A stretch of DNA of 56,617 bases from positions 62,001 to 118,617 of the forward strand of contig CAUYUJ010000082.1 in assembly GCA_963575745.1 (NCBI GenBank). The letters run 5' to 3'. A program made the translations under genes and the position numbers. Shown here piece after piece: positions 10,086 through 47,170 of the stretch (positions within the stretch are counted from its first letter, which is position 1; every line of letters begins with the position of its first letter). The notes beneath the pieces are model-generated. The model was given only the letters and a program-made list of their open reading frames with translations, did no database searches and had not been told where the DNA came from. The DNA is from Prorocentrum cordatum (Eukaryota).

Positions 10086-10164
10086 CATGATGGTCGTGGT
10101 GGTGGTAGTGGCGATGATGATGATGACGATGATGATGATGATGATGATAATCATGATCATGATC

Positions 10165-10218
<54 letters not shown>

Positions 10219-10483: not shown

Positions 10484-10558
<75 letters not shown>

Positions 10559-14765: not shown

Positions 14766-15108
14766 AGTAAACATGCTCCTCTCCGCCTCATATTCAATGA
14801 GAGCTTAAGATAAGTTGCATGCTTCGCACGTTCTGCCTGAACTACTGCTGCATCCTGCAGCTGTATTGATTGCTCAAACAAGCCAGCCTTGGCTTGCAGG
14901 AGAGAAAAGGAGCGCGCCAGCCCTCGGCCGTCGCGCGTCGTCGGTCGTAGGCCAGCCGGCCTCCTCCCTATACATTCCTGATCGAGTAATCTTGCTTAAC
15001 GGATACTTGTCTTATCGATGTCTCATCCCGTCCCTTCTCTCCCTGAGCAGAGTGAACGTGAGATTTTAATTCCTTTGGCATCTTATCCCGATTCTCAGAG
15101 GAAAGACT
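14766..15108 (+). repeat. 5' LTR (AGT...ACT termini)
   Basis: Colinear with 37206-37548; 13 substitutions and no indels by manual count (~96% identity). Confidence 0.96.
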
Positions 15109-15128
15109 GGTTATCAGCCGAAACGCGC
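15109..15128 (+). promoter_or_regulatory. Primer binding site, half-tRNA (hemivirus-like) type
   Basis: GGTTATCAGCCGAAACGCGC directly abuts the LTR. Its reverse complement GCGCGTTTCGG-CTGATAA-CC looks like a tRNA anticodon arm; compare the Drosophila copia PBS GGTTATGGGCCCAG. Confidence 0.7.
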
Positions 15129-15203
15129 GACTTAGTCGACGCGGGGCCGACCCACCCGGGAAAAGGAACTTCGGGTGAGCCTCGCGACTTAGTCGCTGCG
15201 GGA

Positions 15204-19207: not shown

Positions 19208-19949
19208 CAGTGGCTTCACACTGGCGGCTCAGCCGTCAGTGTTGGAGGAATGATACATGTAATTTTGTTAAGGGTCTTCTTCCTTATCTTCCTTGCTCGG
19301 CGGATGTGGCGAAGCCCGCGTCGGTCAAGCAGAAAACGGGGGGGTCAGGAGAGACCCGCTGACCAAGTCAGCTTGGGTGCCATAGCGTGCCCCGCTCCGT
19401 TATTTCGGGGCCTCCCTGGGCAGAAACAAGCAAGCCCTAAGTTTTTGAAAGCTGTCGCTGCTACCGGTGGGGGGGGAGACTACCGGAATCCCTTCGGCGA
19501 CGAAGTTTACCAGGAAAGCAGGAAACAGGTCGAGAGTCTCGTCAATGTCCTTGCGAATTTCCTATATCCTCTTTCTCGGGGCGCGATCAAGAAGTACTGG
19601 TGCGTCCCCCCCTAGTAAGAGTTGCATCCGACATCATAAAAGCGATAGATGCAATCTCCGTGTCCGTTTTCACCCCTCTACTGAGGAACCCACTATCACT
19701 TGGAGGAAGGCGCGTCGCTACGACTTGAAAGAGTTGCCTTCGAGTAGCACAGACAGACGGAGGTTCCCGGGAGAAGCGCGCAGACATACATCCACTCTGT
19801 CGAGGGCATCTACTGTAGAAGCTTTGATCAGAGCGTCGGACCTGCAAGATGAAGTCTGGCACCTCTGGTTGAAGACTGAGGAGGGGGGAGAGGGCCCGCG
19901 CGGCGCAGCCGCTGCTGGATGCACAGACAAAGATGCTGCGTATCTCGGC

Positions 19950-20290
19950 GCGCTGAGCTTCATCATTGACACAGGATGTGGGTATAACCTCACAGCGGAA
20001 AAATGCATCAGAAGTGCAGGTGCAATGAGGTTGATTCGAAAGCTTCCGCAATCGATCACTCTGAACACTGCTGGGGGAGAATCCAAGGCCCTCGGTTCAG
20101 TTCGCATCGTTCTAACGCTTTAGTCATGCCGGAGACTCCGTGCGTGATTTCGGTAGGAGAGCGGTGCGTGGATCACGGCTTTAGCTTCTTCTGGCCAGCA
20201 GGCCAAAGACCCTACTTGTTATTGCCCAATGGCCAAAGAGTGGACCTGGCCGTTGAGGGCAAGATACCGTACTTGACCCTATCAGGCAAA
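19950..20290 (+). pseudogene. pol: Aspartic protease domain (frameshifted)
   Basis: FIIDTGCG (catalytic Asp codon at 19968) and LNTAGG; continues in the next frame as ETPCVISVGERC...IPYL. Confidence 0.85.
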
Positions 20291-20950
20291 GAGGCACTGG
20301 GTCAGTGGATGTGTGCGGTTGCCGCCGGAAAAGGTGAGGCCCCCGAGCGGTGGTGTTGCGTGACGCCAGGCGCCAAGGCATTCCTGGACAATGTGGAATC
20401 TGCGGGAGGCCCTCCGCCCCGCGCTGTCCAGACTCGCGTGACCATAGACCTGCATGCACATGAGTTGATTGGAACCCACAGCTACGCTGATGGACGGCCG
20501 ACTGAGATCGCGGCCGCCTTTCCATCTTCGATAGACTCTGCGGATACCACCACCTACTTCTATTATTCGCTTCAAAAGGCTAGTGAATGCGGTTGGAGTC
20601 GGACGCCGACCGGTATCGCTGCCTCTAAAAGTCTCTCAGCTTTGCCCGACCACGGTCAAGCCGTCGGTCAGTGCGACGAACAGCCCGGCAAAGCCGAGGC
20701 CTGCGCTGCCGCATACAGATACCCCCGTGGGTATGGAGTTTCCGGATGTCTTCCTTACGAAATATATCGAGGACTGGACTCATATGTGTGCAGCGCGGCC
20801 CCAGGACCCGAAGAGGGTGAAGTTGGAGACGCTGACGGTGTCGACTTAGTCGACGTCGACGCACCGCCAGATTTAGACCCAGACGTTGCGGAGGTTGAGG
20901 TGTCGGAGACCGTTGCCGAGCGGCTAAAGACGGCCGCAGCCTCCCTGCCG

Positions 20951-21730
20951 CACCTTCTAACTCATACTCCCAAGAACCCATATTGTTCATTATGCAATGG
21001 GGCCAAAATTATTAGAAAGCAACAGCGCAAAGCGCAACACAAAGGGCTTAAGGTTCCCCGCCCATGCGCTAACCCCACTTCGTTCGGACACCTGACGACG
21101 GTGGACCATTGGTTTGCGATGGATGAACTATCGCGGGGGCTCCACGACGAGACCGCGTGTGTGACTTTTCGCGACCGAGCTACGGACTTTCTCGGCGCTC
21201 AGGGTGTACACGACAAGTCTGCGGTTCACGCGTGTAACTTTGTAGTAAACCTGAGAGCCCCGGAGGATAAGTTATAATATTGTTATACAGATGGTGCAAG
21301 AGAGCTTGCGAGGGCATGTTGCGAGCTCAATATTGCCCATGATCCCACCATCCCAGGAAACAAGAAACATAGCGCTGTTGCCGAGCGTGCAAATGGCGTG
21401 GTGCAGATGGGGGCCAGAGCCTTACTCATGCAGGCCAGTCTTCCGCCACCGTTTTGGACCTATGCAGTCCGTTACTTCTGCTTATGCTACAATACTCGAA
21501 CCCCGGCAGAGGGGCAGTCAAGCTGGGAGCGACGCTTTGGATGTACATTCGACGCTCCGCTCCTTCCCTTCGGATCCCTCATGCGCTACGTGCCTCCACC
21601 TGAGTCCAGATTTCGGACCGCCAAGACTGGTGCAACGATGATTCCGGGGATATGCTTGGGGTATGTGCACAAAGCGGGGGGGCTGGTTGGACCAGATAGC
21701 TATGTTGTCCCTCTGAGGCAATTGGATGGA
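20951..21730 (+). pseudogene. pol: Integrase (HHCC plus DDE), with a stop and a frameshift
   Basis: HLLTHTPKNPYCSLC; LTTVDH; YTDGARE; AERANG; LLMQASLPPPFWTYAVRYFC; PFGS; GICLGY. Confidence 0.9.
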
Positions 21731-23189
21731 CTGAACATGGAGACAGGGCGTACCCCAGAGGGAAATCGACCCACCATTGAAAAGTCTGACCAGGTGTACA
21801 GCAACATCTTAGATGGTACTGCTGATGACCAGTCGCCCCAATTCCTTCTGCGAAAAGCGTACGAGAAAGCGGCGACATAAGTACGATCCGTCACGATCCC
21901 CACAGAAACACAGGAGAAGCTGCGGCCGTCCCAGACGGACCTCAACCAGCCACAGGGATAAGACCGGACAACACGTTTAATGTTGACGATCCTGTTATTG
22001 TTATGCCACCGCCTTCTCAAGGAGGCGAGGGCGTTCCACGCGTCGACTCAGAGGCCGTTCTAGAAGACGACGGCCCAGGGGGTTTGTGCGTGGGTGACGA
22101 GCCTATGGTTGTTGGCGGTAGGGATCCTCAACGCGACTCCCATCCAGCTGACAAGAATCAAAAGCTGGGACTCGCACGACTCGAGTATCGTTTGGACAGA
22201 CAGTCCAACTTCTCAGCGGCTAAGCCGCGCGAGAAGGTCCCCGGGAAAGGGCAACTTCTTGCTCGAACAACTCAAAACCTGGACACGATGGAATACTTCG
22301 AAGACAGACGAATCGTCGCTGGACTCACAAAAGAGGAGTTGACACATAAACTTCCAGTGACAGGTCGTCGAAAGACATGCAGGATTCGAGTTGTTCTTTA
22401 TTATGATCCCGACTACGTGCCTATAACACGAGTGTGGGTCACAGACCCTGAAAAAGCTGCCTGAATCCACCAATCCGGGGATGCATCCGGGACGATGGTT
22501 GAACGTGAATCAAGCGCAGCGCCGGCGGGCCGTGGAACAATACAAGGCAGAAAAGAGAGGATTCTTCGGTATTGAAGATCCCGGCCCTTGCCTCGGACTC
22601 CTGCGTGACATTGGCCTGGCTGTGGGCGACCCACCGACTCCGCCTGATCCCGCAGAGGCCCAGCCACTTGCGGCTCTTCTAGAGGTCAGGTTTTCAGCGC
22701 CTGAGGTGGCTGAGAGGCTGCGCCGATTGAAGAAAAACAGCCTGTGCTACACCCTTGGCAGCGGACGTGGGGCGGCGTCGCGACACACCCAGGGCGGTCA
22801 AGCCGCGCCAGCGACTGATGCATCCTCGGAGGAAGATGATTCGGTATGACATCTTTCGGATGATGAAGATATTTGATGGAAACAGACATGGTATGGAGAC
22901 ACTATTGCACGAGATGGGCTCCCCTCCGGCTCAGCCGGTAGGGATTCTTTGTCCGATGATCAAGATGACGGGTCTGAGGACAATCATGAGGCAAGCCAGA
23001 CCCCGAGTCCGGCGGCCGCCGCGTCGCGGCGAAGCGTGCCTCGGATGCCGCTACAGCATAACTCAGAGGCAGATCTCAGTCATTGTGAAAATGAAAAATT
23101 TGATTTGCAATATTTCTACAATCCTTTTACTGACCTTATTTCAATCGTCGATGAAGCCTTCCAACTTCCTAATGATTGGCGACGCGCCC

Positions 23190-24640
23190 ACGTAGATGCT
23201 GCTGTCGCCAGATCCGTCTCGAAAGACGAGGCCAAAGCAAATAAAGATGCCCAAGCTGCCCTGAGAAAAGATGGGATAGGTTGCGGGCCATAGGCACATG
23301 GACAGAAGATGGCGTCAGAGAGTGCTCTGATGTGGTTGCCGAACTCAAGGGAAAGACGGCCCATTTTGGCCGGCTGTTTGCGATCCTTGTTGAAAAGAAC
23401 TCGGAGTTACCGTTGGGACATAAAGGTCGCAGGTATAAAGGTCGGGTAGTTTGCGATGGCTCGAGTGTTCAAGATCAAACTAAGGATGTGGCATTATTCC
23501 AGGAACTTCCCAGCAGTCCCACCACGATGCAGGCCAGCAAAGCAGCCGACACCTACGGGCTATTCGAAGGTCACAGCATCGAGCAAGCGGATGCCCGCCA
23601 GGCCTACGCTCAGTCGAAACTGGGGGTCACCCCCACGTGGGTTTTCTTGCCTCGAGATGAATGGCCTAAGGCGTGGTCGCACATGCGTGGCCCCGTATGC
23701 CCACTGTATCTATACGGGCACCCTGATTCAGGTGGATATTGGGAGCAGAATTGTGAAGGGCATGTTACGGCAAAAGGCTTTGTGAAGTGTAGTCCGTGGC
23801 GCAGCTGTTATGTCCACAAGGAATTGCACATTTTCTGATTATCTATGTTGATGACTTTAAGCTGTCGGGACCTGCCGACAAGCTCGCCGAGGGCTGGAAA
23901 CTATTACAAGAGCCCTCTGGTAACTGTCCCAAGGGAATCGAGATAGATCCTCCAACTGCAGTTGGACAATACTTGGGATGTGAACATACATTGTCAACCC
24001 GAACGGTTGAATGGCAGGGTGAGTTACCTGCAATCTTAGACCCGCCTCCTCCCAATGTTAAGAAAAACGCCTCCGTCACAGACGAGAGTAGCGAGGAGGA
24101 AACGGGGGGTGACTCGGCGGTTCAACCGTCCGAGCCATATCAGCCGAGAGAACCAAAATTAGAAAAAGTCATAGAATATGACATGACGGAGTTCTTTGAG
24201 TCCTGTGTTACCTTGTATGCTCAGCTAACGGACACCGACCCAGCTACTTATCCGGACTCGGGTGCCCCGTTTGGCCCTGAGCTTACTGATCTAGAAGATG
24301 GCCAGGGCGGCCCAAGAGGCGAAATTTCCTCCCCCGCTGAGGAGGCAATAGCATCAGCCTTGCAAATCAATGTTGATTCTGGCCCCCTGATTGGAAGATA
24401 GAAGTTATTGGCCTTGACGCAGCAGTAGCAAGCCCTGATGACCCCGAGCCACCGACTCAGTCGGGTGTGCTCCAACCCATTGCAGCAAAAGTATTGATGA
24501 AGATACTTTATGGTGCGTGAATGGCAAGATGCGACTTGCTTCGAGCAGTATGTCAAACCGCAAGTTGCATCACAAAATAGACAGAACAACAAGACATGGA
24601 TCTATTCCGCCTCATATGTTATATCAAATGTACCTCCCAT
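23190..24640 (+). pseudogene. pol: Copia-type reverse transcriptase (frameshifted)
   Basis: GRLFAILVEK..YKGRVV; ADARQAYAQ; LYGHPDSGGYWEQ; IYVDDF (YVDD at 23844-23855); YLGC; KILYGARMARCDLL. Confidence 0.93.
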
Positions 24641-24679
24641 TGCCGTATGACTTCGTGGGTAGGCGACAAAAAGGAGGAT

Positions 24680-25140
24680 GTCATGTTAAAGCAATATTAT
24701 GATGCAGACTTGGCAAGCGACATTCGCACACATCGGAGCACGAATGTTAGCTATCAAGCCATTTGGGGCCCCTACACGAGAGCTGGACAGTCCATGGGAT
24801 CACAACGCCAAACGTGTGTTTCCCAGAGTACCCTTGAGGCTGAGATTGTCGCAGCCGACCTTGCGTTACGCAAGGAGCTGCTTGCGGCGCTACCGCTTTG
24901 GGAAATACTGCTTGACAGACCAGTGCGATGTCTATTTTTGGAAGATAACCAAGCGGTTTGCAAGGTCATCGAGGCGGGTGGGCCAATGAAGCTCATGCAT
25001 CTCTCGAGAACGCATATAATCGATGCTGCAGCTGTGTCTGAACAATTTTCTCGTGGCCTTGTTGAGCTCCAGTATGAAAGAACTCAAAACGAGGCTGCCG
25101 ATATTGGAACCAAAAGATTTATTGACCCTTTGGCATGGGT
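24680..25140 (+). pseudogene. pol: Copia RNase H
   Basis: YDADLA..RST; VSQSTLEAEIVA; EDNQAV; HLSRTH; AADIGTK. Confidence 0.93.
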
Positions 25141-26017
25141 GAAAGTTCTATATATTGTCAACATTGTTGCGCCTAAATTCTGGGCCACTAAGCGGTGCCA
25201 AGATTATCTGGGCTCGATGTTTTCAGACGGACTTCCCTTGAAACCCGGGGTGATTCTGAAGCCCCGCTTGGGCCCTAGTTCGGCCTTGCGGAGAGGAGCT
25301 GGTTTACCTAGCAAAACGATGAACAAAAATAACAAGCGCCCCAACAAGGGTAAACCTGTCGTGGCCGCTCCCGGCAAAGCCGCGGAGGCATGCGCTCTCA
25401 GTGCAACGAAAACTGCGGATGCATCCGGCTCCGCCGAAGACGCAGGTAATACAACTCCCCTTATGACCAGAGAAGGTTACAGCAGAGGCTCCGAGAAAAC
25501 GAGAGCGATGGATAATATAACCAAGAAAAGTTCTGATCGCGAAATGAAGGCAATGTTTGACATGACGGATAGCGAAAATTAGTCAAATGCCTCCATGGCG
25601 CCCGAAAGCGTGGAATATATTCCCGGTAACAATCATTTTCTTCCTCATCCTCCGCCTGCTGCGGCTGCTAGTTCCTTGGGTCAAAAGGACACGTAGGTGC
25701 AACAAGGACAGAATTTGAAAAGATGGCATTATGTTCCGAGACTTGTTACACTCATGCCTGCAATCGGTGATTGTCCCGTCGACCCCGGAAGATTAGATGA
25801 TAAGCGCCGCGCCTACGCTGTCAACATCCAGCAAGGTTTGACGATTGATCGCATTGACAATTGGCGCGACGAGGAGAGTAGATCTCATCACCCATTTGAA
25901 CATGACTCGAATGGTGATTCCAGCGATGGCGACTATGGCCCGAGTAGATGGACCGGATACACAGAGTTCTGGATCCGAGAAGATGGCGCCCCGGCCACTC
26001 AGTGGACCGGGGAAAGG

Positions 26018-26670
26018 CTTTTGTTAGAATGCTGTTGCGGCCCTCAGAGCAGGATAGGAGACCCAGAGAATTTCGTCGACAACTCATGTAAGGTAATTCG
26101 ATACACAGAGAAGGAAGACATGAGGACGGATGAGGGACTTAGAATAGCATTGAGCGATATTAATACGTTCAAGGGAAAACGCATCACGTTATGGGGTTCA
26201 ATGCCTTGCACGGGAGACTCTCCCTGGCAATGTGTCAATGAAGCGCACTATTTCCGTACTGGAAATCACAGAGCGATGCGTAGGCTTCGAGGTATTAGAA
26301 CTGATTTCAGATACCTGTTTTGGAACTTCCAGGAGATTGCCCGCGCTGTGCACAAAGCGGGGGGTGTTGTTTGCATTGAGTGGCCTACCCAGTTTATTGG
26401 AGGGACCCTCAGGTGAAAAGTTTCATGAGATAACTAGAGTTTGTGAAGACGGCGTTGCATGGATGTGCGTACGGGTCAAAGGATAGCAAGGGCAATTTCA
26501 TGAAAAAACCCTGGACGATAGCCGCTACCTCCTCTGTTGTTGCGGAGGGGCTCGAGCGCAGATGTGATGGCACGCATGAGCATGTGGAGGCTAGTGGGCG
26601 TGAGTGCAAGAGCGCTGAAGATTACACGGATGTTTTTGCTAAGCAGGTCCATGCTGTCATTGCTCGTGCT
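26018..26670 (+). pseudogene. C5-cytosine DNA methyltransferase domain (frameshift plus stop)
   Basis: Motif I-like LLLECCCG (26018), catalytic motif IV LWGSMPCT (PC at 26204-26209), motif VI-like IEWP (26375). After a frameshift: YW..HGCAYG..KKPWTI..HEH..G..KSAEDYT. Confidence 0.8.
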
Positions 26671-28799
26671 GCAGAGAATTTTTTGTCGTCTCGTCGTCGT
26701 CCTATCTCCTCCTCCATTCATGTTTGTGCCGCTGCCGTTTCGTCTCTAGAGCTTGCGCGGGCTGCCCTGCGGCCGGCCCCCCCTGGGATCGAGCGGTTGC
26801 CTTGCGGCGACTGCTCGAGCCTTGCCTGCCGCGCCCCTCGCGCATCTGAGAGAGTATCGACCGAACCCATGTGCCGACCGCTGAGGAACTCAGCGGTCAA
26901 GCCCCCGGGGGAGGAAGTTGTCTCCATCTGCTCAGATGACGTCGCAGATGATATCGACTCCGGCTCAGTCGGAGAAGAAAATCAAGGGAGAGAGATCCGA
27001 GACAATGCCCCTCCCAACGCAATTCGGAAAGCCACCCCACCGGCTCGGCCGAGAGGGGAGGCTGGCCCACCGGCTCAGCCGGGAGGGGCAAAAGACAACG
27101 ATTTCAGCCCGATCGATGTTGTATCAGAGATGGATGTCGAGATGGAGGCTGGCGTTGAGATCCGTGGCGAAGAAATAGCTGCACGCAAAAGGGCGGCAGA
27201 GGCAGCCTTCCGAGGCAGTCGGCACGCAAAGAAAGCGGCCAACTCTAATAATGAGGACACCGACTCCTGCAAGAACAGACCGATCTTCAAATGTTTCCCG
27301 GACAAGTTGAGGGAATGGTCCCGACAGGGACCTACTGGAAATGCCGAATTCGTTCCCACGAAAGGATGGGGTTGGCGCTACACGGTGTGGAGGCATGACA
27401 TACTGTATACGCGGAGCGACGAAGTCGTGGCCGCGTTGAAGGCAGATCTGGAAGCGACGTCACAGACGATATTTCAGCGTTTATATTCCCAAGTTTCACA
27501 AGATCCATGGACGGTTCAGTGGACAATGTTCGGCGGAAGGCTACTTGCCGCTTCGATTGCGCCCCTCCTGACCCGGATAAGATCCCTATTGGAACGTTCT
27601 TTCAGACGTATCCTGACGAAAAGACGAAGTTGGTCAGTGAGGTGTATGCGAACCCCCCTGGGGGATACCGTGGCATAGTTCGACCGCTCGAACCAGGGGA
27701 AATCATAGGTCCTACTGTCGGCTCAGCCGTTCAGTATGAGACCCCCTTTGGAAACTATGTAAGCGTGCCAGTGGTTGATTGCCGGACAGAGGGCTCCCCG
27801 CGTGTCTGGGTTGACATTTGGGCGCCATCTTCTCGAAAGCCTCCCCAGGGCTCAGCCACTGGGGATAGCTGGGGAACGATGTTTGCTCTTCCAGTGGTCA
27901 AGGGTTTATACCAGGCACCTGTGCACGTTGTCGAGGAGGCCCTTGCCGCCACTGCAAAAGCAGCATACTTCGAGGCCTCTCCCCAACAGGCGGTGCGTTG
28001 GCGGAAAAGACAGCGCCCATGGAAAAGACCGCATAATTTCGAAGAGTGGCTTGCCAGGGAGGGCCTTGATCCTGGGGCCGATGAAGACTCGCCGCCGAAA
28101 AAGCCAAGAGCTGCAGCGGAGGCAACGGATGACACTGTTACCGTGGCTAATCAGCAAGCAGTCTCCTGCGGCAATCAGCCCCCATTGAGCAACCCTGGGA
28201 CCGGAAGACAGGTGGCCGGCGAATCATCTTCCGGCCAATCGTCCGGCAATTGGTCAATGGCCCTCCCGGTTTAGCTGGTGGGGGCAATGGTGGTGAACCA
28301 CCCCGCGGCTCAGCCGGTGGAGGTGGGGCACCGCCAACATCTGGCGGACTCCCTTCGGGAAACGATCCACCCTCTCACCCCCCCTCAGGAGGTGGTGGAG
28401 GGGCCGCCCGACTCAGGGCCAGTAGCGGCTGGAGCTGAGTCTGACGATCAGCCATACATTGGGCGTGGTCCCTGGAACGTCCTAGAGTGTCTGCGGACGC
28501 AGGGGATCTTCGGGGAAGATCCCAGACCCCCCTCGAACGATTGGCGGGAGAAGGTGGACGAAATTTTGAGTCTCTATATTGGGGTCACGGATCCGAAAAT
28601 GAAAGACTGGTCGGACAAACTGACCTTCGTTAAGAAGTGTCAGGCCATTTCTAAGATCGCCGAAGTCAGCGGACATTTGTGGATCCCGTTTATAGGGGAG
28701 GGCCTCGCTGCCATGTCGTCCACGGGGAAACCCGCGACGGATTTCTTTCGCCCGCTGAGCCAGATGAGGTGCGGATCGAGACTTGCTTGGACTTGCTCT

Positions 28800-29420
28800 A
28801 TTCACATTGTTTCGGATTCTACAATTGTGTTCAAAGACAGGTCAGGGCCCGCGAAGCCTAGCCTGTGCCCTGAATATAACCTGCGTGAGAAGGTGTTCGG
28901 GAGTATACAGCAAGCCGTGAGTGGAGCACAGATTTCGGACATCCTTAATGCCTCCGCGAATTTTCGGTGGGAACAGAGCGGGTGTTACGAAAAAGGGACC
29001 CACTCCCCAATCCGTTTTACGTTCTGGAACTTCAACGACATTGTTGACAACATCCTAGCTAAACGGAGTTGGGAGTGGGCCCAAACGATACGAGAACCCG
29101 CTCGCTTTCGCCGGAAGCCTCAGGTTCATGATAAGAGATGCTGTTAAGTTGATTGATGCGCGATGCTCCGTTCACCTGAGGGGGCGATCGATATCATGCA
29201 TATTGGTGGGGGCCACACGTGCTGGCAGAACGATGGAGCTGGCGTTGACCCCATGTGGGACGACGTTGCCACACTAGTTCGAGCCAGAATGAAACGTCGG
29301 ATAGAGCACTACAAAGCAATAGGACTGTTTCCTAGACTAATGATTCTCGACGGGGTGAGCCTCTACCGACAGCTTAAGCACCGCCCAGGAGACGTCTTCC
29401 ATTTCGGTGCCAGCCACCCC
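28800..29420 (+). pseudogene. SGNH/GDSL hydrolase-like domain
   Basis: Block I IHIVSDST (Ser at 28818), block II AVSGA, block III FWNFND, block V DVFH (29391-29402), in the canonical order; in-frame stops at ~29145-29157. Confidence 0.6.
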
Positions 29421-30829
29421 GATTACAAACTGTATAGCGGAGGGCGTATTGAAGGCGCAAATGCTGGCCAATTGTGTGCGGATTACATGATCAAAACGGC
29501 TAAGCTAGCCATATCATTTTTCTGTCAGCCTTCCGGCGGCTCAGCCGTTCGGGATGGTCATATATCGTGCGCGACGAGAGATGGCGGATATGCCGAACAG
29601 GAGGCGGAAGTTAAATACCTTATTATGTACTGGCAGGACTGGTCTCCTGCTGAGGGCAATATCCCCACGTCGGTATTCGGCGCGCTCCCATTCAGGGAAC
29701 CTTCGACCAACGTCGATTTTTACAGCCGTTTCAAACGGAACTGGAGGTGGTGCAATACATTCATATTACTCAACGGATTTCAAGAGTTTCCTTGAAAGAG
29801 GGGCCGCGTACAGTGACTTTTTCCCATGGGCGGATGATGCCTACTTTCTGCCTCGCGGAGAAACTTTCTGCCCTGGAATGCCGCCGAAGGGAAAGAGCCA
29901 GAGATCGGTGAATGAGGGCGCGCAAAATGATGAGCCTATGCGTACAGCACTCAACGAGTTCAATAAAGCAGCGCCAACGGCTGCGCCGAGCGGCTTAGCC
30001 GTTGCGGTGAGTGGCGCAACGCCGGGCGGCATAGCTGTCCCCGTTCCCGCCGCGTCGTCGGCTGGTGCTGCTGCCCCAGCCGGAAATGCCAGGCCTGGCG
30101 GCTCAGCCGCTACAGGCTCCGGCTCCAGCGCGCGAACGGCTCAGTCGCCTCGCGCTCCCCCTCTGGCGCCACCGTCTAATGTCAAAGAAATAGAGACGCC
30201 TGGTGAAGCAGCAGAAAAACACATCCGCGAAAAGTGCCCCGAGGGAAAGTTGACCACACTCAGTCAACGTTACAAGTTTCCAAGGCGGCCAAAAGAAGGT
30301 AGCCCAGGATATGAAGAACTCCTCTGGCCGCATTGTCATCCGTATCAGCAGACAAAGAAGCTGTCTTTCCAGAAATCATCGGAGGCAGATGTTACCTATT
30401 ATGATTCTCTTTGTCCACTCACGGTTGCTAGCCGGAACCTCCATCGGGGCATGATGCCCATGAACGCCTATCCGGGCGAAGAAGGCCGCCTTGCTGAAGT
30501 CGCTCAAGGGAAGGAACCAGCTAGAAGCAAGGAAACGAAAATGGTCCTAAAAGCAACTAACAGTGAAGCGTGGCTGGCGTTCCAATTGCTACAGAAGACG
30601 ACGAAAGTTCCGGCTGCGACTCCACGTTGCATTATCCCGAACTGGGCGCGTTTCTTTAGAATCAAGGCCGACGGGTCGATTCCAGGCCCGACAGCCACCG
30701 TGGCTGACCGACTGAATTGGGCCAAATTGAGGACGACTGCCCACAAGGTGGGCAGGGCCCACTGTGTTGAGCTTGCACTGCCATTCTTCGTGACAGCTGA
30801 AAAGATTGCGGAAGTCTCAGACTCATCCG

Positions 30830-31150
30830 CAGGATGGACCAAACAGTCGCGCGGCACGTCTGTGACTGCACTTCACTCGATACTGAAAGGCCATCAGTTG
30901 CTCCCATCAGACCCCAAGTGCGGAGGGAATGTGAAAACGCATGCGGTTGGGGTATATTCCTTCCCGTGTAGCGACAACCCCAACACTCACGCGACATACT
31001 CCGTCGCGGAGGAGACCTTTGGAGATGGTATTTGGGTGACCGCGGAGATTGTTTTCTATGCCAAGAATACGAGACCCATCAGAGGGTCACCGACTCAGTA
31101 TGTGAGTGATCCGATGAGTGACGTATTGTATGAGTTGCGACTTTACTATT
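30830..31150 (+). pseudogene. PARP-like ADP-ribosyltransferase-fold domain within ORF 29554-31518
   Basis: RGTS..ALHSIL..LLPS...GVYSF...ATYS...QYV parallels HGT..SI..GL...GxY...xY...ExV; Arg codon CGC (30850) is one transition from His CAC. Confidence 0.5.
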
Positions 31151-32334
31151 GGTCCGCGGCAGCGTTGTATGTTACCGACGCGTGGTCACATTTGCTGCGT
31201 GTTGCCAAGCTAAACGGGTGGAGTCTGGAGCAGGACTTTGAGGTTGAGAGATATCGAGATGAAGCCCGGACGACGGCAACGGACAAAGTCCGAGAGGCGC
31301 AGATGGCCTGGGTCCCAAATTTGAAACGATTTGACTGGCAAAAGGGACAAAGCCAATATTTGAGGGGCAAAGGGGCAACCGACGATGAAACCTATGATGA
31401 CATTTGGCCTTGGCTCCAAGAGAAAGGAGTCATATTAACCAAGATTCATGCTATTCACAAGAGCGAGGCCTCGGAGAAGTCTTTTAACCTGGTTGAACAG
31501 AACAGACTGGAAACATAAAAGGAGCAGGAGGCGGACAAGATGGAGCCGGCGGCTAAGTCGTCCGGCGCCCCATTTACGATTGAAAGCAATGATTTCCCGA
31601 GCCTCGGACAGACCCTTGCAAATCTAGGGGAGACATGCAAAGCGCCGCCCCCTGGGGCCGCGGCTTGGTCTTCTACTCCTCAGGCTCCTCCTCCTGGAGG
31701 ACCAAGAGAGATTGCCCCCAAAAGGGCTCCGCCGGAGATTCGAACGTCGACGAAGTCGCCTGCCAACAAGCCGAATGTCCCCGTGCAGGGGAATGTTCCG
31801 CAGGCAAGAGATTTTCCCAAGAGAGCCCCGCCTCCGCCGAAGTTCGTGCCGAGATCACAGATATTGGGCCCTCCGCCAGCGAAGATGCTTCGAATTGAAG
31901 GAGATCTCGCTGCGCCCCCGGCTGCGCAGCCACCTGCGAAGCCGGGTGGCAAAGATGCAGCCGGCAGCCAAACTTGGAAGCCAAGTATTCCTGAGCCTCC
32001 GCCCAAGTTGACCAAATTTATCGGAGATAATGTTTCCGACTCTCCGCCCGTCGATCAGAGCCATCAGACAGGTGAGTTTCGATAAAAGTCTGCGCCCAGT
32101 TCGACTGGGCGATGGGGAGATGCATGGCGTGCCGAAGAAAGTGCCACAAGCAATCGGCCTGCAGAAGCGCACCCCCCGAACGACGAGGCACAAGCTGCCC
32201 CTGCTGAAGAGGCAGCTCCCGGTCAAGACGGAGACGGTAATACATCAGGCGAAAACCCCGCGACTCAGTCGGATGGGGATCGTTCATCTGAGGATTCGCC
32301 AATATTAGAAGGAGATGATGATATAACGTTTATT

Positions 32335-35136
32335 TTGAAAGCTCTCAAAGAGGTCTCAAATGAACACTTCTCGCGCCCGAGAGCCAGCAGAGCATTGATA
32401 CATGAGAAACAATTCTTCTACCGCATGAGAGGAGTGCGGTCGAGAGCGCAAGATGTCGACCTGCAGGAGACTCCTGAGTTAAGGAAATTCAGAATCACAG
32501 CGGCCTCGTTTATTCAGGCGGCGAACTGTGTTTATTCAATATACGCGCAGAACGATGGCCACGAACCAGATGCATATTCCACTGTGTGGAATGTTTTTTT
32601 TGATGCTGTTGTGGAGCAAATCAGAAAGGCGGATCCAGATTTTGTTCGCACCCCTGTGGCGTCGGAGAAACCCAGGAGGACTAGACATGCAGAGGCGGGC
32701 GATTCGGGAGCAGGTATGATTAGAGTCCCTACTCCCCCTGCCCCTCCGTCCGGCTCGGCCGCGGCGGACGATCTCCCGACTCCTCCACCTGGTTCGCCCA
32801 GAGCGGAACAGGATGATCAGTTTGATGCACCAGAAGAACCATCAGTGCCTACCACGGTGGAGCCATGGGACGAGGGGGCAACTACTGCCCCCAAGCATCA
32901 GCAAGACGCCCGGATGCCTCGGGCAATCCGGGTATCCCAGGAGCTGACGCAGAAGCTGAGGACATTAGTACAGTCTTTCCATATGAAGGGGATCCCGAGC
33001 TCATTGAATCTATGGAAGACGAGGATTGTTCCCTTGGTCCAGCATTTGAAAACATGTTTCGTAGATAGACTCTCCCGCCAGCTCCTGATAAAAGACAAAG
33101 TCAGCCCCTGCACACGGATCCTAACGACGAGGATCGAGACGTCACAGTGGGGCACGCTGTTTCATTCAAGGGCAAACAATTATGTTACGGCAGAAGAACG
33201 TGGGCAAATCAGTCGGAGGACCCCTGGACCATCGAAACAGATTATCTACGACGCACATATAACTGGACCCGTTCCGCCGCACATCGAAGCCATCCGCAAT
33301 CGGACTGGCAACGCACTTCGGTGCATGACCGAATTTGCGGAAGACCCGATTTTCGCGATGCTGGGGAGCCTCAATCAGGATGATGGCACTGTCGAAAAGG
33401 CGAAGGACTTTCTTAGAGCCGAATTTCATTCCGATGACGTCCCAGAAGGCTTTACCCCAGAAGTCTTTGGGTGTCTTGAGCCGCTGGTAGTTGGGGTCGA
33501 TGACAAAGAGAATCCGGCTGTTTTGGGCAGTTCGGACACTTGGTGCACTCAGAGCTGCCGTGCAGATGTATTCGCCGAGAAAGTAGGCAAGTGCGCTGTG
33601 TACCTCGTAAGGCATTGTTCCGACTATGCGAGATCGTCGGGAGGCTGGGTCTATTTTGGAGACCTAGTGCAGAAAACCAAAGACGACGGTTTTACTTTTC
33701 AATCATACGCCCTTGCTGCGCACGGCTTAGCCGTGTTGTCACCAGAGACAATTGAAGTTTTGGGCATACTCCCCAAGGGTAGTTATAAACTTATTGGGAC
33801 CAGTGTCCATGATATGTGGTCACGATATAAGACGTGCCCATCGCAAGAGGAAGCGAGGAGTGAGGCACCCATACCCATTTTCTATCGAGCATGCCAGGGA
33901 CATTCGACATTCGTTGCTTCCATTGAAAGGGTGTATGTCCCGTATGACCCTGGCCAAGCCAGGGGTCATGTATCTCTTCTTCATATCACGGACTTGCAGA
34001 CATTCCTGGAATCTACGGACGGAGCAGTCCGTTTCCCGAAGAGGGATTCAGGGCTTTGTCGTGACGCAGACAATGAGTTGCTGCGATTGCTTCCAACGAA
34101 CAGGAGCCCTACAATGCCTGATCCCACGCGTATTCCTCCGTGGCTCAGCCAGCGGACATACGGAGAACCTCTCCCTGCAAGAAGCCTACTGCCCATGGGC
34201 AATGTGGCACAGAGAGGAGAACCGCCAACGGTGGGGACTTGGCCCGCAGATGACACCAACCACCTATGGCAACAACTTCCCAATCATCGCGAGTTATGGG
34301 AGCTTGTTCTCGTTTTCACTGGCAGAGTGCTCACTCGCTTCTCGTGCAGGGTTTGTCCAGGCGGGACCATAGTGTCCCGTGAGGTGCCGAGGTTCACTGA
34401 CATTGACAAAGCTGTCTCTCTCGTCAAACAGGAGGACCAGATGCGCCGGTCGGTACTTTTCAATCGCGAGTGGGCTTCATATGAAGTGACTTTCGACAAT
34501 GAGTCGATTATTGCTTGGATCCACGCAGACGAGAGACGACTGTTGTCGTGGAGTCGCCGGCCAGCACTGGAACACGAAATCCAGGACCGGGTTTTAACCG
34601 TCTCCTGGGAAGACGACGGGAGGTCCCTGTGTTTCCGATATCATTGGGTGAGGACAGGTTTTGCAAATTGTCCTGTCTGCAGCTGTCCGATCAAATATAA
34701 ATATAGGGTCACGCATGATTTCGTGACTCAGACATGGAATCATACCACAATCCCGCGGTCTCTTGAGGCGAATGGACTTGTATTAGAGGTGATGAACTCG
34801 TACGACCTTCCTTGGTGGGATCGCACCCAGTATATAAAGGTGCGTGGAGAACGACAACAGAGAGCTTCTGCGCTTGTAATGAAAAACGTCAGCAGCAATC
34901 ATCAGCAGGAGCGAAAATGGGCGAATGGGGACTACGCTAAACTAGTGGCAGCTGGCCAGATATTCGGCAACAGCTTGCCGGGCAATTTCCCGGCTTGGGT
35001 GCCAGAGAAAGCCGTGGCTCAGCCACCGGCGCGCCATGCCCCTTTCTTCCGATATTCAAGGCCTTTGGGTCAGACGGTTCATGTCTTGGCTTGGGTTTTC
35101 CGCCAAAAGGATGAGCAGGCGGACCCCGGCGATTAA
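32335..35136 (+). CDS. 933-codon open segment of the element polyprotein containing a Tpt1/KptA RNA 2'-phosphotransferase-like domain (~33580-34420)
   Basis: YLVRH (33601), GGWVYFGDLV, RACQGHS (33886-33906), LLHIT, SGLCR and GGTIVSREVP match the Tpt1 motif series LRH/DGWV/RAxQGHS/HGT/GL..R/NGVxL. Confidence 0.75.
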   Translation: MKALKEVSNEHFSRPRASRALIHEKQFFYRMRGVRSRAQDVDLQETPELRKFRITAASFIQAANCVYSIYAQNDGHEPDAYSTVWNVFFDAVVEQIRKADPDFVRTPVASEKPRRTRHAEAGDSGAGMIRVPTPPAPPSGSAAADDLPTPPPGSPRAEQDDQFDAPEEPSVPTTVEPWDEGATTAPKHQQDARMPRAIRVSQELTQKLRTLVQSFHMKGIPSSLNLWKTRIVPLVQHLKTCFVDRLSRQLLIKDKVSPCTRILTTRIETSQWGTLFHSRANNYVTAEERGQISRRTPGPSKQIIYDAHITGPVPPHIEAIRNRTGNALRCMTEFAEDPIFAMLGSLNQDDGTVEKAKDFLRAEFHSDDVPEGFTPEVFGCLEPLVVGVDDKENPAVLGSSDTWCTQSCRADVFAEKVGKCAVYLVRHCSDYARSSGGWVYFGDLVQKTKDDGFTFQSYALAAHGLAVLSPETIEVLGILPKGSYKLIGTSVHDMWSRYKTCPSQEEARSEAPIPIFYRACQGHSTFVASIERVYVPYDPGQARGHVSLLHITDLQTFLESTDGAVRFPKRDSGLCRDADNELLRLLPTNRSPTMPDPTRIPPWLSQRTYGEPLPARSLLPMGNVAQRGEPPTVGTWPADDTNHLWQQLPNHRELWELVLVFTGRVLTRFSCRVCPGGTIVSREVPRFTDIDKAVSLVKQEDQMRRSVLFNREWASYEVTFDNESIIAWIHADERRLLSWSRRPALEHEIQDRVLTVSWEDDGRSLCFRYHWVRTGFANCPVCSCPIKYKYRVTHDFVTQTWNHTTIPRSLEANGLVLEVMNSYDLPWWDRTQYIKVRGERQQRASALVMKNVSSNHQQERKWANGDYAKLVAAGQIFGNSLPGNFPAWVPEKAVAQPPARHAPFFRYSRPLGQTVHVLAWVFRQKDEQADPGD

Positions 35137-35531
35137 TACCTGGTGGCCGGAACTATGGAAGACAAACTTTGATCAATACGCTCGCCCAAGAACTTGCCTG
35201 GCTCTGGCCGCCTTTGACTGGCCGAATGAAAGGGACGACTTATTCGTGCCCTTGACAGGCTGGAATAGATGGCATAGCGACATGATTAGGTCAAATGTCT
35301 TTGTTCCGACGCTTCAAACAGTTGATGGCGCGGTAAATTTCGGGAGACCATGGGTGCCCGTACAGAGTGAAAACGTCGTGGGAGACGTAGAAGCAAACGC
35401 CGGAGGGGAACCCCCCCCGCGCGATTGCCGCTCGCCTGGGAGAATATTTCAGAGCGAGGCCAACTCGCAGCTCCCAGTCCGTTTCAAGACGTGCCAATAA
35501 ATGTCGGGACCACCGCCTCATAGTCCCAGTA

Positions 35532-36920
35532 TTGTTACATGCCACCGGTGAAGCCGCGAGGGCAGGTGAACAATCACAAATGGGACTTGACTTTTCGGCA
35601 ACCAGCGGGCCTAAAGCCGCGCTGATAACCGATGGAACGATCAACCTTGATCATCCTGACGGACATGTGTACAATCACTGCGAAGACCGCTCGATCATAA
35701 TAACTTTGCTCGGGGCAGAGGCTCGGGCAACCGCGGCCCAATACGTGGTCGAACACGCTGGCGCAGACCCGAATAACCCTGGCATGGTAATGCTGCAAGG
35801 AGAAGCGAAACATGCGGTCCCGCCAATTATCAAGACCACAATGGATGACAACTGGTTGGCCCCTGTACAGAAGATGCAACTGGGTCTGCGGCCTATATGG
35901 AATTTTGCGGTTGTCAGTGAAATTATCAGCTCCTTCATATCAGAAGGACATTTTGTTGGATACCCGGGGCGAATAATTCGTCCCGATGTAGCGAGCACAG
36001 AAAATATTTCAACGAAGCAACGGACAGATGTGTATGCTCTGGACTGCCGTATTCGTGTTGCTGTTCAAACAGATGACATAATAGAGAAATGGGCCCGCAA
36101 TATGGGCAGGAAAGTGCAGAACGATGTCCGTTGTCAGGGTGCTCTCATACAAGAAGCCATTTTTGGGCTTCAGGACAAATATCCTGATCCTGGAACAGAG
36201 ATCCAGGATAAAGGGGATGGGCCCTTCCGCACTGCATGCGGAAAGTCTGGCGTCCCAGCGGCGACTGCTGCTAGGAGTTTATTACAAATTATGCGAGATC
36301 ATAGAACCGATGATCTGTACCACGACGGCCAAGCCGACCTCGTGGGGCCGAGAAGGGCACCGGATGAGGCGAAGGCTAGACCTTTAACGCCTCCCCCGCC
36401 GATTAGACCTGACGTCCCAGACGTTCGGGTTCCTGATGATGCCACCGAGTCCCCGCGGTCTGTCGCCGGCTCAGCCGTGACGACAAGAGAAGCATGCCCG
36501 CAGTATCCCAACACTTGGGATCGGTCGGTGCCCTGGCGCGCGCGCGATGGCGGCATGGGTGCTGGCGGCGGCGCTGCTGGCTACGACTACGTCTACGACC
36601 AGTCCCTGTCCTACCCGCGCTACGTAAACAATGTTCATGTCGGGTTCTATGTCCACAGGGGCCGGGTCGCGTGGCTGACCGACGAAGAGTGGTGCACTCT
36701 GGATTACTGGCACATACTGTCTACGTATGAGCACGACAATCGCTCCCCATCCAGAAGGAAGTCATCAAATAACAAGGAGAAGAACTACAGTGCTTCAGAT
36801 CAGGAGCGTTCCCGCTCGCCTCGCAGCGGAGAAGGATACACTGGAGGCGCGGCGTCGTCAAACCCGCCGCCGCCCGAGCCGCCCGTGGAAGGGTGCAGCC
36901 CGTGGGGGGGCCTGAACTGA
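35532..36920 (+). CDS. Last coding segment of the LTR element, unknown function
   Basis: 462 open codons of ordinary complexity, on the same strand, ending 285 bp before the 3' LTR. Confidence 0.55.
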   Translation: MLHATGEAARAGEQSQMGLDFSATSGPKAALITDGTINLDHPDGHVYNHCEDRSIIITLLGAEARATAAQYVVEHAGADPNNPGMVMLQGEAKHAVPPIIKTTMDDNWLAPVQKMQLGLRPIWNFAVVSEIISSFISEGHFVGYPGRIIRPDVASTENISTKQRTDVYALDCRIRVAVQTDDIIEKWARNMGRKVQNDVRCQGALIQEAIFGLQDKYPDPGTEIQDKGDGPFRTACGKSGVPAATAARSLLQIMRDHRTDDLYHDGQADLVGPRRAPDEAKARPLTPPPPIRPDVPDVRVPDDATESPRSVAGSAVTTREACPQYPNTWDRSVPWRARDGGMGAGGGAAGYDYVYDQSLSYPRYVNNVHVGFYVHRGRVAWLTDEEWCTLDYWHILSTYEHDNRSPSRRKSSNNKEKNYSASDQERSRSPRSGEGYTGGAASSNPPPPEPPVEGCSPWGGLN

Positions 36921-37196: not shown

Positions 37197-37205
37197 CGCG
37201 GGGGG
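37197..37205 (+). promoter_or_regulatory. Short polypurine tract (G6) before the 3' LTR
   Basis: cgcGGGGGG immediately precedes AGTAA. Confidence 0.6.
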
Positions 37206-37548
37206 AGTAAATATGCTCCTCTCCGCCTCATATTCAATTAGAGCTTAAGATAACTTGTGTGCTTCGCACTGTCTGCCTGAACTACTGCTGCATCCTGCAG
37301 CTGTATTGATTGCTCAAACAAGCCAGCCTTGGCTTGCGGGATAGAAAAGGAGCGCGCCAGCCCTCGGCCGTCGCGCGTCGTCGGTCGTAGGCCAGCCGGC
37401 CTCCTCCCTATACATTCCTGATGGAGTAATCTTGCTTAACGGATACTTGTCTTATCGATGTCTCATCCCGCCCCCTCTCTCCCTGAGCAGAGTGAACGTG
37501 AGATCTTAATTCCTTTGGCATCTTATCCCGATTCTCAGAGGAAAGACT
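37206..37548 (+). repeat. 3' LTR
   Basis: Direct repeat of 14766-15108, followed by TSD CTGAG. Confidence 0.96.
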
Positions 37549-38033
37549 CTGAGGGCTACAGCACTCTGGTGGGGCATGGCTCGAGGACTGAGGGCTGAGG
37601 CTCGCTGATCGAGGATCCAGGATCTTGGACGCTCTTGGCGTCTGGTAGCCTCTGGGGGCCTCCAGAGGCTTCTGCGGAGATCGCCGGAGCCCTCCGGAGA
37701 CTTTTGGGGGCCTCCGGAGACTTCCAGTCGGCGGTCCTCAGTGCTCGGTCCTCGGTGCTCGTCCTTGTCTTCGTCCTCGCCGTTGTCTTCGTCTTTGTCT
37801 TCGTCGTCGTCGTCGTCGTCGTCGTCGTTGGCGTGGTCGTCAAAGTCGACGCCGACGTCGTCGTCAGCGTCGTCGCCAACGGGCTGGGCGGCGCGCGCAG
37901 GCGCGCGCGCGCGGTGCGGCGCCTCCGAGACGCCTCTCGTGGCCAGTGTCGGGCGGGGGCGCTCGGGCCAGTCGTTCGCTCCTCTCTGGAAGGGGGCGCC
38001 CTCCCTGCGTTGCAGGGGCCAACCCTGCCCAGT

Positions 38034-44960: not shown

Positions 44961-45031
44961 CGCAAGGAGAGCCAGAAGGGACGACACCATGAGGGCTGCA
45001 GATTTGAGGAAACTCCCCAACCGCCGCGCAC

Positions 45032-47170
45032 GTGGAGCTGCGCAGGATCTACGCAGATCTGGAGATCCTCGTCGGCGTCCCAACCGTCAACCTTTGCGGC
45101 CCAATCCAGCCCTCGGACTGGATCAGGCCAGCTCGCCCTGGAGGCTTCCCTGACCACCACCCGGACAGCGACGACGGCGACGCCTTTCGCTTGCCCAGCG
45201 ACCCCGCCCCAACTCCAGGTGGTCTTGACAACCGCGCTCTCCTCCCCCCTGTCCTTCCCACCCTTCTGCTTTTCGGGAGGCACGCCCTCACCTTGGCCCT
45301 ACAGGACTGGTGGAAAAAGTGGAAGTCGCACAGAGCACGCGCCTCGGTGGGGACGCTACTGGCGGCAGCCAGCCAAAGACGGCAAGTCACGCGCCCGGTG
45401 GGGGCCCTGGCTGCTTGGCTATACGAGTTTGGATGGGACGGACACGACCTAACCCCAGAGCAGGCTGGGCGCTGGCTCAAAACTTGGGACGCGGAGGTCA
45501 CGCAGCGGAGGGCGATGCACCTATCCCCCGCCCAACGAGGCCCCGGGGCAGAGCGCTCCCACCTCGCAGCCCACTGCAGGACGGGGCGAGAGATATACAA
45601 AAAGACCCACGCCATTCTGGGGGTAAGGGACCATGATGGAAATTGGCACGACAGGCCCAACCAGGTGGGCAAGGTACTTTGGGACAGCCGCAGCTCGATT
45701 TGGCACACCGCTCCCCCTCTTCCTAACTCTGCCGGCCGGCTCCTCGACCAGTACTTCTTGGAGCACCCCGGCACCGACATACCCAGTCGTCCTGCTCCAT
45801 GTTGGGCCAAGCTAGCTACCACCGTCCTCACCCCCAGCGGGGGCGCCCCAGGGGTCGACGGGGTCCCTTACGAGGCCTTTCACCCAGGCGCAAGGTTCGT
45901 CACCTGCCTCCTCGCCCAGGCCTGGTACGCAGCGGACCTCAACCCGAGCCTCATAGACGAAGTACTGGGGCCCTCAGTCGATCTCCTGGTATGGATTTGG
46001 AAGAAGCCAGGCGCTGAGGGGCCCAACGACATGAGGCCGCTCCAACTCCCCACCTGCATACGGCGTCTCTACGGAGCATCCTTGGCCGACCTTATGGGCC
46101 CCATCGTCGAACCGCTCTTAAGTCCCAATCAGGCAGCCAAGAGAGGAGGACAGTGTGGACCCAATATCACCAGGGTCACTCAGCACCTAAGTGCTACCCC
46201 CAGTCCACCAACCGCCCCGGGCCCTAGCTGGGCCGCGCTTCTAGGTCAGCATCATGCGGTGGTGGAAGAGTACGTCGAGCGCATCGCCGCAACTCTGGGC
46301 GACGCCCCATGCACTGCCGTCATCTTCTGTGATCAGAACAAAGCGTTCGAAAGGATCTCGCTCCAATGGGTCGATGCCCTGCTACAAAGATGGGGACTCC
46401 CCTCATGGCTTCTCAACGCCTTAAAAGCCTTGGTTATTGAACGAAAGGTTAAGACGTGCAAGGGCAAGTACAAAGGGCCAGAACGCCTCCTCCTCAGATC
46501 CGTCGGCATGGGCGGCACCGCCTCCCCCCTCCTGTGGAATCTGGGCTACGACCCCCTCATAAGCGCCATTGCATCCATCACAGGAGAGGTCGACCCCACT
46601 TACGTAGACGACCTCGCTGCGCTTGTTAGCACAACAAGACAGGCTCTTCGCGCAGCAATCGCACTCCCCTGGGCAGCCAAGGCCGCCAGGCTCCTGGTCG
46701 AGGCGCGCAGATGTCGGGGGGCGCGCACCTACGACCCCCCTGATATCCGCATGGCGTTGGAGGAGGTCCCCGTGCACTTTGAGCAGGGCGGAGACTGCGT
46801 GCTCATCTCAGGTTTGAGCAGGGCGGAGACTGCGTGCTCATCTCAGGTCTCCCTGCACTCCTGACCCAGGCTCTTATCAACAGACACATGGGGGAAGGTG
46901 GCCCGATACGGTGCACGCACTACCAGCGCACCTGTAACTGCGCGTTCAAGACAGCGCTCGTACCCGCGGGAAACCAAGGGTGGTGGCGCTCACTCATGGG
47001 GCACACCCCCTTTGGAGGATCGGCGGTCAGGGAGCAATGGCCCTATTTGGGGGCAATAGTAGTATCCCGAGCAGCAGACGGGGACGAACCCCCTGAGAAG
47101 GAGGACTCACAGGGGAGCAGGAAGAGCTACTGCGCAAGGGCACGTGGAACCGCCCCCTCCCCAGGATGAG
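45032..47170 (+). pseudogene. Non-LTR reverse transcriptase, frameshifted by a 35-bp duplication
   Basis: APGVDGVPY; WKK..MRPLQL; DQNKAFERI; GMGGTASPLLW; YVDDL; PYLG. Confidence 0.92.

Follow-up and report, generated by a model that had tools for sequence, protein, structure and literature searches.

Does a giant retrotransposon carry its own version of a tRNA-repair enzyme and, if so, is that version still an enzyme? The question is raised by a 56,617-nucleotide stretch of Prorocentrum cordatum DNA (assembly GCA_963575745.1, contig CAUYUJ010000082.1, positions 62,001 to 118,617; hereafter, the window), which contains a long terminal repeat (LTR) insertion that totals 22.8 kb (14766-37548) and is nearly all coding on the + strand. 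Within this insertion, a reading made from the sequence alone (hereafter, the original prediction) had recognized a domain of the Tpt1/KptA family. The known chemistry of Tpt1 includes the removal of an internal 2'-phosphate. Tpt1/KptA enzymes are widespread, and their role beyond tRNA splicing in fungi and plants is described as an open question (PMC6573784, PMC12678800).

With somewhat better than even confidence, we interpret the segment 33550-34404 as a strongly diverged, two-lobed domain that derives from Tpt1/KptA and belongs to the accessory polyprotein of a family of 22.8-kb LTR retrotransposons, with the Ty1/copia gene order, that is multicopy in Pyramimonas-type green algae. The parts of this interpretation differ in strength: descent from Tpt1 is well supported and, judging from profile comparisons and a structural model, quite probable, whereas retained catalysis is not well supported and, on the residues that are kept, can be proposed only tentatively.

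Comparison of the domain with Tpt1/KptA

The domain is encoded in one open reading frame (ORF) of 1016 codons (32086-35136, + strand, as are all features of the element described here), and the hidden Markov model (HMM) of the family matches residues 480-798 of this ORF without interruption (560 bits). All the motifs that the original prediction had listed for 33580-34420 in the Tpt1 order (RH, GWV, RACQGHS, HxT, and GTIVS) are indeed present in this single frame. In the in-frame translation, these are AVYLVRHCS, with the Arg-His dyad (33610-33615; residues 1 and 2 of the catalytic tetrad) aligned to R21-H22 of KptA; SSGGWVY, with the GGW turn (33634-33654); IFYRACQGHS (33880-33906), which ends in the RACQGHS strand equivalent to RAxQGHS of Tpt1 (33886-33906); LLHIT (33976-33990), where H-I-T (33982-33990), aligned to LYHGT, is the equivalent of HGT that binds the adenosine ribose of NAD+; and the C-terminal motif GGTIVSREVPRF (34360-34395). 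The Tpt1-like N-terminal (RNA) lobe, delineated by AlphaFold2 (AF2), structure comparison, and hhalign, spans 33550-33939 and is a predicted winged helix with a wing about 35 residues longer than in Tpt1. It is followed by a conserved stretch with LLRLLP, P.WL.QRR.GE, and G.WP..D..LW (33991-34314), presumably a remodelled NAD lobe with an insertion of about 100 residues, in which hhalign finds no significant match to Tpt1. The C-terminal motif in its extended form, F.GRV.TRF..R.C.dGT.VS.EVPRF.DI (34315-34404), is collinear with F..a.NGVWLT..VP..F of Tpt1. The original prediction had mentioned insertions; the domain has about 35 additional residues in its wing and, in the presumed NAD lobe, which gave no confident model, a further 100 or so.

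For the profile comparisons, a Tpt1 alignment of 32 sequences was assembled from E. coli KptA, taken from its annotated locus, its relatives, and diverse PF01885 matches from 26 of the 151 genomes of one bacterial phylum; a contig scan with the KptA alignment did not broaden this set, as all of its matches were close proteobacterial KptA at 55-95% identity. Against a narrow KptA profile, hhalign gave the family a probability of 45-67% (P 5e-5 to 2e-4). Against the diverse Tpt1 profile, the RH/GGW segment reached a probability of 95.6% (P=1.2e-8, score 62.3); family positions 1-100 aligned to Tpt1 1-70 with 90% (P=1.7e-6); the segment from RAxQGHS to H-x-T (family 100-165, Tpt1 60-115), taken alone, with 94.3% (P=9.7e-8); and the N-lobe, in a global alignment of 92 columns, with 96.7% (P=4.6e-10). 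Even after correction for some 25,000 Pfam families, the P-value of the N-lobe would be near 1e-5. The controls for the score of 62.3 were much lower: the maximum over 100 column-shuffled templates was 21.2, with a median of 13.4, and reversal of the template gave 13.1. HMMER, run in both directions, yielded a weak signal of 13-14 bits that falls on the same segments, and it is because of this low signal that Pfam misses the domain.

The structural evidence comes from an AF2 run on a 72-row alignment, in which the N part (residues 1-125) is modelled as a winged helix with a predicted local distance difference test (pLDDT) score of 76-90. When this lobe was compared by VIA with 48,161 chains, three of the nine chains with Z>=5 were Tpt1 enzymes, namely, TkoTpt1 (9LD3; PMC12678800; Z 5.6, 22% identity), Runella (Rsl) Tpt1 (7KW9; Z 5.3, 24% identity), and mouse TRPT1 (7YW2; Z 5.3, 18% identity). 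The alignments with these three structures cover 74-82 residues at a root-mean-square deviation of 2.7-3.4 A, and their identities, 18-24%, are the highest in the VIA list. The 594 top Foldseek chains, re-ranked by VIA, included winged helices and La motifs only, with a best Z of 4.7 and without a Tpt1 chain; searches of the ESM Atlas with the whole domain and with residues 10-165 gave no usable match. La motifs thus appear in both structure lists, which fits the published likeness of the Tpt1 RNA lobe to La (PMC6333775). Taken together, the profile alignments and the model show the predicted RNA-binding winged-helix lobe to be homologous to that of Tpt1.

Overall, the domain shares with Tpt1/KptA/TRPT1 (PF01885) the winged-helix RNA lobe, the Arg-His dyad after helix 1, the GW turn, the RAxQGHS strand, H-x-T some 20-25 residues further on, and, in collinear position near the C-terminus, the motif G-[TV]-x-[VL]-[ST]..VP..F. 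Unlike these enzymes, it comprises about 320 rather than about 180 residues, has H-[IV]-T in place of HGT, lacks SK.LS, and is embedded in a retrotransposon polyprotein of more than 1000 residues. The original identification of a Tpt1/KptA domain therefore stands as remote homology, based on profile-profile alignment and the structure of the N-lobe, but not as a match to PF01885 or as a complete tetrad. We regard it as a known type of domain that has diverged strongly and occurs here in a new setting.

Two shorter ORFs upstream of the 1016-codon ORF (29509-31515 and 31519-32082) lie in the same frame, with a single TAA between neighbours. Each of the in-frame stops that split this frame (31516-31521 and 32083-32088) consists of TAA followed by AAG. 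Directly 3' of the domain, at 34480-34800, the ORF shares with one of the relatives (P0017) a Cys-rich stretch, CP.C...P, possibly, a zinc ribbon.

Residue conservation and possible activity

An exhaustive HMMER search for relatives of the domain produced 71 cluster representatives (50% identity), 10 of these below 1e-30, and a profile search produced 81 clusters (90% identity): 77 consist of EukProt 'Pyramimonas sp.' fragments, and the other 4 come from short ENA, JGI, or NCBI contigs. A prasinophyte alga thus has multiple and diverse copies of the domain (22-80% identity), which sits within the same larger protein in its relatives. No near-length homologues of the 1016-residue ORF were found in a protein homologue search, and a search of metagenome_contigs and viral_contigs with the family alignment found no relative of the domain. 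Conservation was counted over about 130 relatives, almost all of them Pyramimonas fragments, with denominators that vary by column. In the N-lobe, R31 is kept in 20/28, H32 in 27/29, G41 and G42 in 26/28 each, and W43 in 25/28; in the RACQGHS strand, R123 is kept in 35/39, Q126 in 32/38, G127 in 36/38, H128 in 31/38, and S129 in 30/38. Conservation extends to the presumed NAD lobe (H155 44/49, T157 34/49, R189 47/50) and to the C-terminal motif (G282 38/40, V285 36/38, P290 34/38, F292 28/32). Even the most distant lineage, P0257/P0061 (21-22% identity), retains RH, GGW, R...GHS, and H-x-[TS]. Conservation also holds between H-x-T and the C-terminal motif, so that this part is not a disordered linker.

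Which of these columns matter for catalysis can be gauged from the characterized enzymes. The essential tetrad is R18-H19-R68-R121 in CthTpt1, corresponding to R17-H18-R65-R118 in TkoTpt1; the transferred phosphate is contacted by K66 and Y80, the latter replaced by Gln in Runella; and R121, R139, and R140 form a cage around the NAD phosphates (PMC6333775, PMC12678800). HGT (H101, T103) is reported to bind the adenosine ribose of NAD (PMC6333775). In KptA numbering, the equivalents are R21, H22, R69 (in KKRF), R125, Q83, H105/T107, and R143. The family keeps R21-H22 as R31-H32, Q83 as Q126, and H105/T107 as H155-x-T157, with the Gly of HGT replaced. Also kept, as R123, is R80, the Arg of RAxQGHS; this residue is invariant in Tpt1 (32/32) and lies outside the Arg-His-Arg-Arg tetrad, the third residue of which is provided by the upstream K-x-R motif on strand beta2 (KptA R69, that is, CthTpt1 R68). 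S13-K14 of SK.LS are replaced by Ile/Gly. Thus, the Arg-His half of the tetrad invoked in the original prediction was identified, but no residue could be assigned to its third and fourth Arg.

If the domain is active, this module of the accessory polyprotein would grip a phosphorylated RNA or DNA end via Arg-His and Gln126, and engage NAD+ via H-x-T in the remodelled NAD lobe. It might then remove or ADP-ribosylate a 2', 3', or 5' phosphate on RNA that the element requires, such as a primer tRNA fragment or the genomic RNA, or on a cDNA end. Such reactions have precedents: a subset of Tpt1 enzymes has been reported to remove terminal 2' or 3' phosphates (PMC6573784), and ADP-ribosylation of 5' phosphates is described as within the known Tpt1 chemistry (PMC12678800).

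Two H-x-T-like motifs, GHST and LHIT, were also considered as a possible signature of a 2H phosphoesterase. They are only 27 residues apart and align to QGHS and HGT of Tpt1, and this candidate was rejected.

The host retrotransposon and its primer-binding site

The insertion is bounded by a target-site duplication, CTGAG, at 14761-14765 and 37549-37553. The 5' LTR (14766-15108) and the 3' LTR (37206-37548), 343 nt each, with AGT...ACT termini, form an aligned direct repeat pair with 330 of the 343 positions identical. Between the LTRs, the motifs recognized by eye follow the order of Ty1/copia elements: a DTG protease (FIIDTGCGYN) and an integrase with an H-H-C-C finger and D..D..E (19449-21877, where the frame changes once and is interrupted by a TAA at 21275), then a reverse transcriptase with the YVDD motif (LIIYVDDFKLSG) and a copia-like RNase H with TEAE, DNQ, and ADIGTK (STLEAEIVAA, EDNQAV, ADIGTK; 23245-25579, split over three frames). 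Downstream of RNase H, the ORF map delineates an accessory coding sequence of about 11 kb (25697-36917) that holds the candidate domain, and a short purine run, GGGGGG (37200-37205), presumably the polypurine tract, abuts the 3' LTR. The LTRs, the target-site duplication, and the order of protease, integrase, reverse transcriptase, and RNase H bear out the Copia-element setting that had been assigned to the domain.

None of the pol ORFs matched Pfam (RVT_2, rve, RNase H), NCBIfam, or PHROGs; the accessory region likewise had no match in these three libraries, NCBIfam and PHROGs returned nothing relevant for 16 ORFs of the element, and the integrase and RNase H ORFs retrieved only chance matches from the PDB. 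A pol that the libraries miss, although its motifs are readily recognized by eye, suggests a copia-like lineage that has diverged very far. Like Drosophila copia and other Ty1/copia elements that are primed by a tRNA 5' half, this one combines the protease-integrase-reverse transcriptase-RNase H order with a 5-bp target duplication and a primer-binding site (PBS) complementary to an internal tRNA stretch; it differs from them in its length, about four times that of a typical copia element, in the 11 kb of accessory coding sequence, and in a pol so divergent that Pfam misses it.

The PBS-like stretch, GGTTATCAGCCGAAACGCGCGAC, immediately follows the 5' LTR (15109-15131), and its first 14 nt are complementary to positions 27-40 of a tRNA anticodon arm. 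The reverse complement of these 14 nt (15109-15122, GGTTATCAGCCGAA) is TTCGGCTGATAACC, which is shaped as an anticodon arm, with the stem TTCGG, the loop CTGATAA, and then CC. Viral contigs were scanned with TTCGGCTGATAACC completed to a stem and with the middle anticodon base left free; among the 118 loci found, 109 are tRNA-Asn(gtt), 4 are tRNA-Ile(gat), and 5 are without a tRNA call; the tRNA genes in this comparison are those of viral contigs rather than of the host. The match to the viral tRNA-Ile(gat) genes is exact, and tRNA-Asn(gtt) has 1 mismatch to the window. Rfam gave no tRNA match at the PBS, and ARAGORN detected no tRNA gene in the window. Judging from this complementarity, a half-tRNA primer of the Ile-GAU/Asn-GUU type is plausible; in Drosophila copia, the primer is reported to be the 5' half of the initiator tRNA-Met, a different tRNA (PMC10275265, citing Kikuchi 1986). 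The half-tRNA PBS of the original prediction is supported insofar as the complementarity extends over an internal tRNA stretch that ends in the anticodon stem, but the site also has an alternative reading, in which 12 nt of it, together with the last T of the LTR, represent TGG followed by the complement of a tRNA 3' end.

Just 3' of the PBS, the leader contains two copies of CGCGACTTAGTCG(A/C)(C/T)GCG (15126-15143 and 15183-15200), about 57 nt apart. Each repeat can pair with the surroundings of the other to form a long hairpin, which weak Rfam alignments trace. A gag-like region at 18326-19204 has CCCH-type zinc knuckles (a weak match to zf-CCCH_RBM22, E=0.008) instead of the usual CCHC. Outside the element, the window contains, downstream on the + strand at 45008-46861 and 51205-53502, a second retroelement-type ORF, the reverse transcriptase of which, unlike that of the LTR element, is recognized by Pfam (RVT_1, E=6e-11), and a superfamily 1 (SF1) helicase ORF (AAA_11/AAA_12, E=1e-22 to 4e-27), and, upstream at 7900-11600, a G-rich low-complexity array of more than 3 kb with a 9-15-nt periodicity and a GC skew of up to 0.57.

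Alternative explanations and implications

A number of observations weigh against the interpretation of the segment as a Tpt1-derived domain of a retrotransposon family. PF01885, the comparison proposed in the original prediction, had no match at E<=1 in the ORF, in the 280-residue stretch, or in any of 18 relatives, and none at E<=10 in the 72 family members, so that this check came out negative for the window and for 72/72 relatives. In a search of the 806 window ORFs with a custom Tpt1 HMM (hmmsearch --max), the domain-bearing ORF was not listed at E<=100; in the PDB, phmmer with the domain gave 0 matches at E<=10, hmmsearch with the family profile gave 4 matches at E 0.43-1.5, no Tpt1 among these, and Foldseek found nothing at E<=0.001. 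The VIA Z-scores of the Tpt1 structures are tied with those of unrelated winged helices (ScpA, Scc1, ESCRT-II). For the C part, the best local hhalign match is always that of F..R.C.dGT.VS..vPrF with F..a.NGVWLT..VP, collinear but not significant (P 0.018-0.12), and its pLDDT is low, with values from below 50 to 66 when the domain is modelled as a whole and 47 when this part is predicted alone. The position of KptA R69 in K-x-R falls on the non-conserved M99 column (Met in 10, Leu in 6, and His in 5 of 32), where the hhalign confidence is near zero, so that no conserved counterpart of this Arg could be assigned; no basic residue is conserved across lineages within residues 74-116, and R113, present in 25/35 relatives, is lost in P0017, P0025, and P0257/P0061. 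For KptA R125 and the Arg cage, the candidates are R189, which is replaced by Tyr in P0257/P0061, R195 (31/50), and R212/R213, and no alignment decides among them. Finally, the pol of the window copy is broken, with frame changes in the protease and reverse transcriptase and a TAA in the integrase core.

The negative results of every HMM library and the tied Z-scores could be taken to mean that there is no Tpt1 here at all, and that a generic La-motif-like winged-helix RNA-binding domain, joined to an unrelated domain, has come to resemble Tpt1 by chance or convergence. La motifs in both structure lists would agree with such an origin, as they would with a true Tpt1, the RNA lobe of which is known for this likeness (PMC6333775). 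We consider this explanation unlikely: two independent collinear segments each align to the Tpt1 profile with P<2e-6, the shuffled and reversed controls score far lower, and the conserved residues coincide with RH, Q-G-H-S, and H-x-T of Tpt1. La-type domains share the fold of the N-lobe, but are described as being without the Arg-His and Arg residues (PMC6333775), whereas the family retains RH and QGHS. It is similarly improbable that the domain is a passenger, that is, a captured fragment of a host or viral gene, or a nested insertion, without a part in the life cycle of the element. The decay of the window copy and the 11 kb of accessory sequence without a known retroelement function would fit a passenger; by contrast, the domain is multicopy and diverse, shows column-specific conservation, and recurs within the same larger protein, on the pol strand and inside the LTRs.

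A serious rival, given the state of the K-x-R motif and of the fourth Arg, is a binding-only pseudoenzyme: a Tpt1 derivative that lost phosphotransfer and serves the accessory protein as a module for binding RNA or RNA ends, for example, in RNA selection or packaging. The K-x-R position without a conserved basic residue, the fourth Arg and the NAD-phosphate Arg cage that cannot be assigned, the change of Ser-Lys in SK.LS to Ile/Gly, and the NAD lobe broken by a conserved insertion of about 100 residues all speak for such a loss, which we regard as possible, if less than probable. Nevertheless, Arg-His, Gln126, and H-x-T, which in Tpt1 are solely catalytic or ligand-binding residues, are kept and persist even in lineages at 22-26% identity. 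At the other extreme is the mechanism advanced in the original prediction, in which a nuclease cuts the tRNA and the domain turns the 2'/3' phosphate at the 3' end of the resulting 5' half into a hydroxyl, so that this half can prime reverse transcription. The complementarity of the PBS to tRNA positions 27-40, which stops within the anticodon stem, the priming of Drosophila copia by a 5' tRNA half (PMC10275265), and the removal of terminal 2' and 3' phosphates by some Tpt1 enzymes (PMC6573784) make this mechanism conceivable. However, the domain and the half-tRNA PBS co-occur in one copy, and no relatives with context were found in metagenome_contigs or viral_contigs; nor did Pfam, NCBIfam, or PHROGs detect a 2H, cyclic phosphodiesterase, kinase, or ligase domain in the element. 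We know of no Tpt1 that opens a 2',3'-cyclic phosphate, which also weighs against healing of the primer. For the copia primer, a cleavage of the RNase P type has reportedly been put forward; the resulting 3'-OH would need no healing. Together with the alternative reading of the PBS as complementary to a tRNA 3' end, this makes primer healing improbable, and the specific scheme in which the element-encoded, Tpt1-like enzyme would use NAD+ to strip a 2'/3' phosphate from a cut 5' half of an Ile-GAU/Asn-GUU-type tRNA, creating the priming 3'-OH, very unlikely. The evidence for the suggested role of the domain in healing a primer, in repair, or in capping thus comes down to co-occurrence in a single degenerate copy.

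The Tpt1-derived domain that we favor would have parallels in other selfish replicons. KptA domains have been described in polyproteins of viruses and in proteins of giant viruses (Iyer et al. 2022, PMC9503650), likewise large multidomain proteins with a proposed role in RNA-end processing; the reported carriers include phages, Bodo saltans virus, sawfly nucleopolyhedroviruses, and two positive-strand RNA viruses. In the main text of that article, neither 'retrotransposon' nor 'retroelement' appears, and our full-text search of the literature found no article linking Tpt1 to retrotransposons.

The finding exposes a giant, library-invisible, copia-like lineage in prasinophyte algae, with 11 kb of uncharacterised genes. 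Were primer healing to prove true, this would be the first known case of a retroelement with an enzyme that heals RNA ends. More generally, the retention of such a domain by a selfish element across deep divergence implies that the retrotransposition cycle includes a substrate for it, and this family may thus offer a handle on the purpose of Tpt1-type chemistry.

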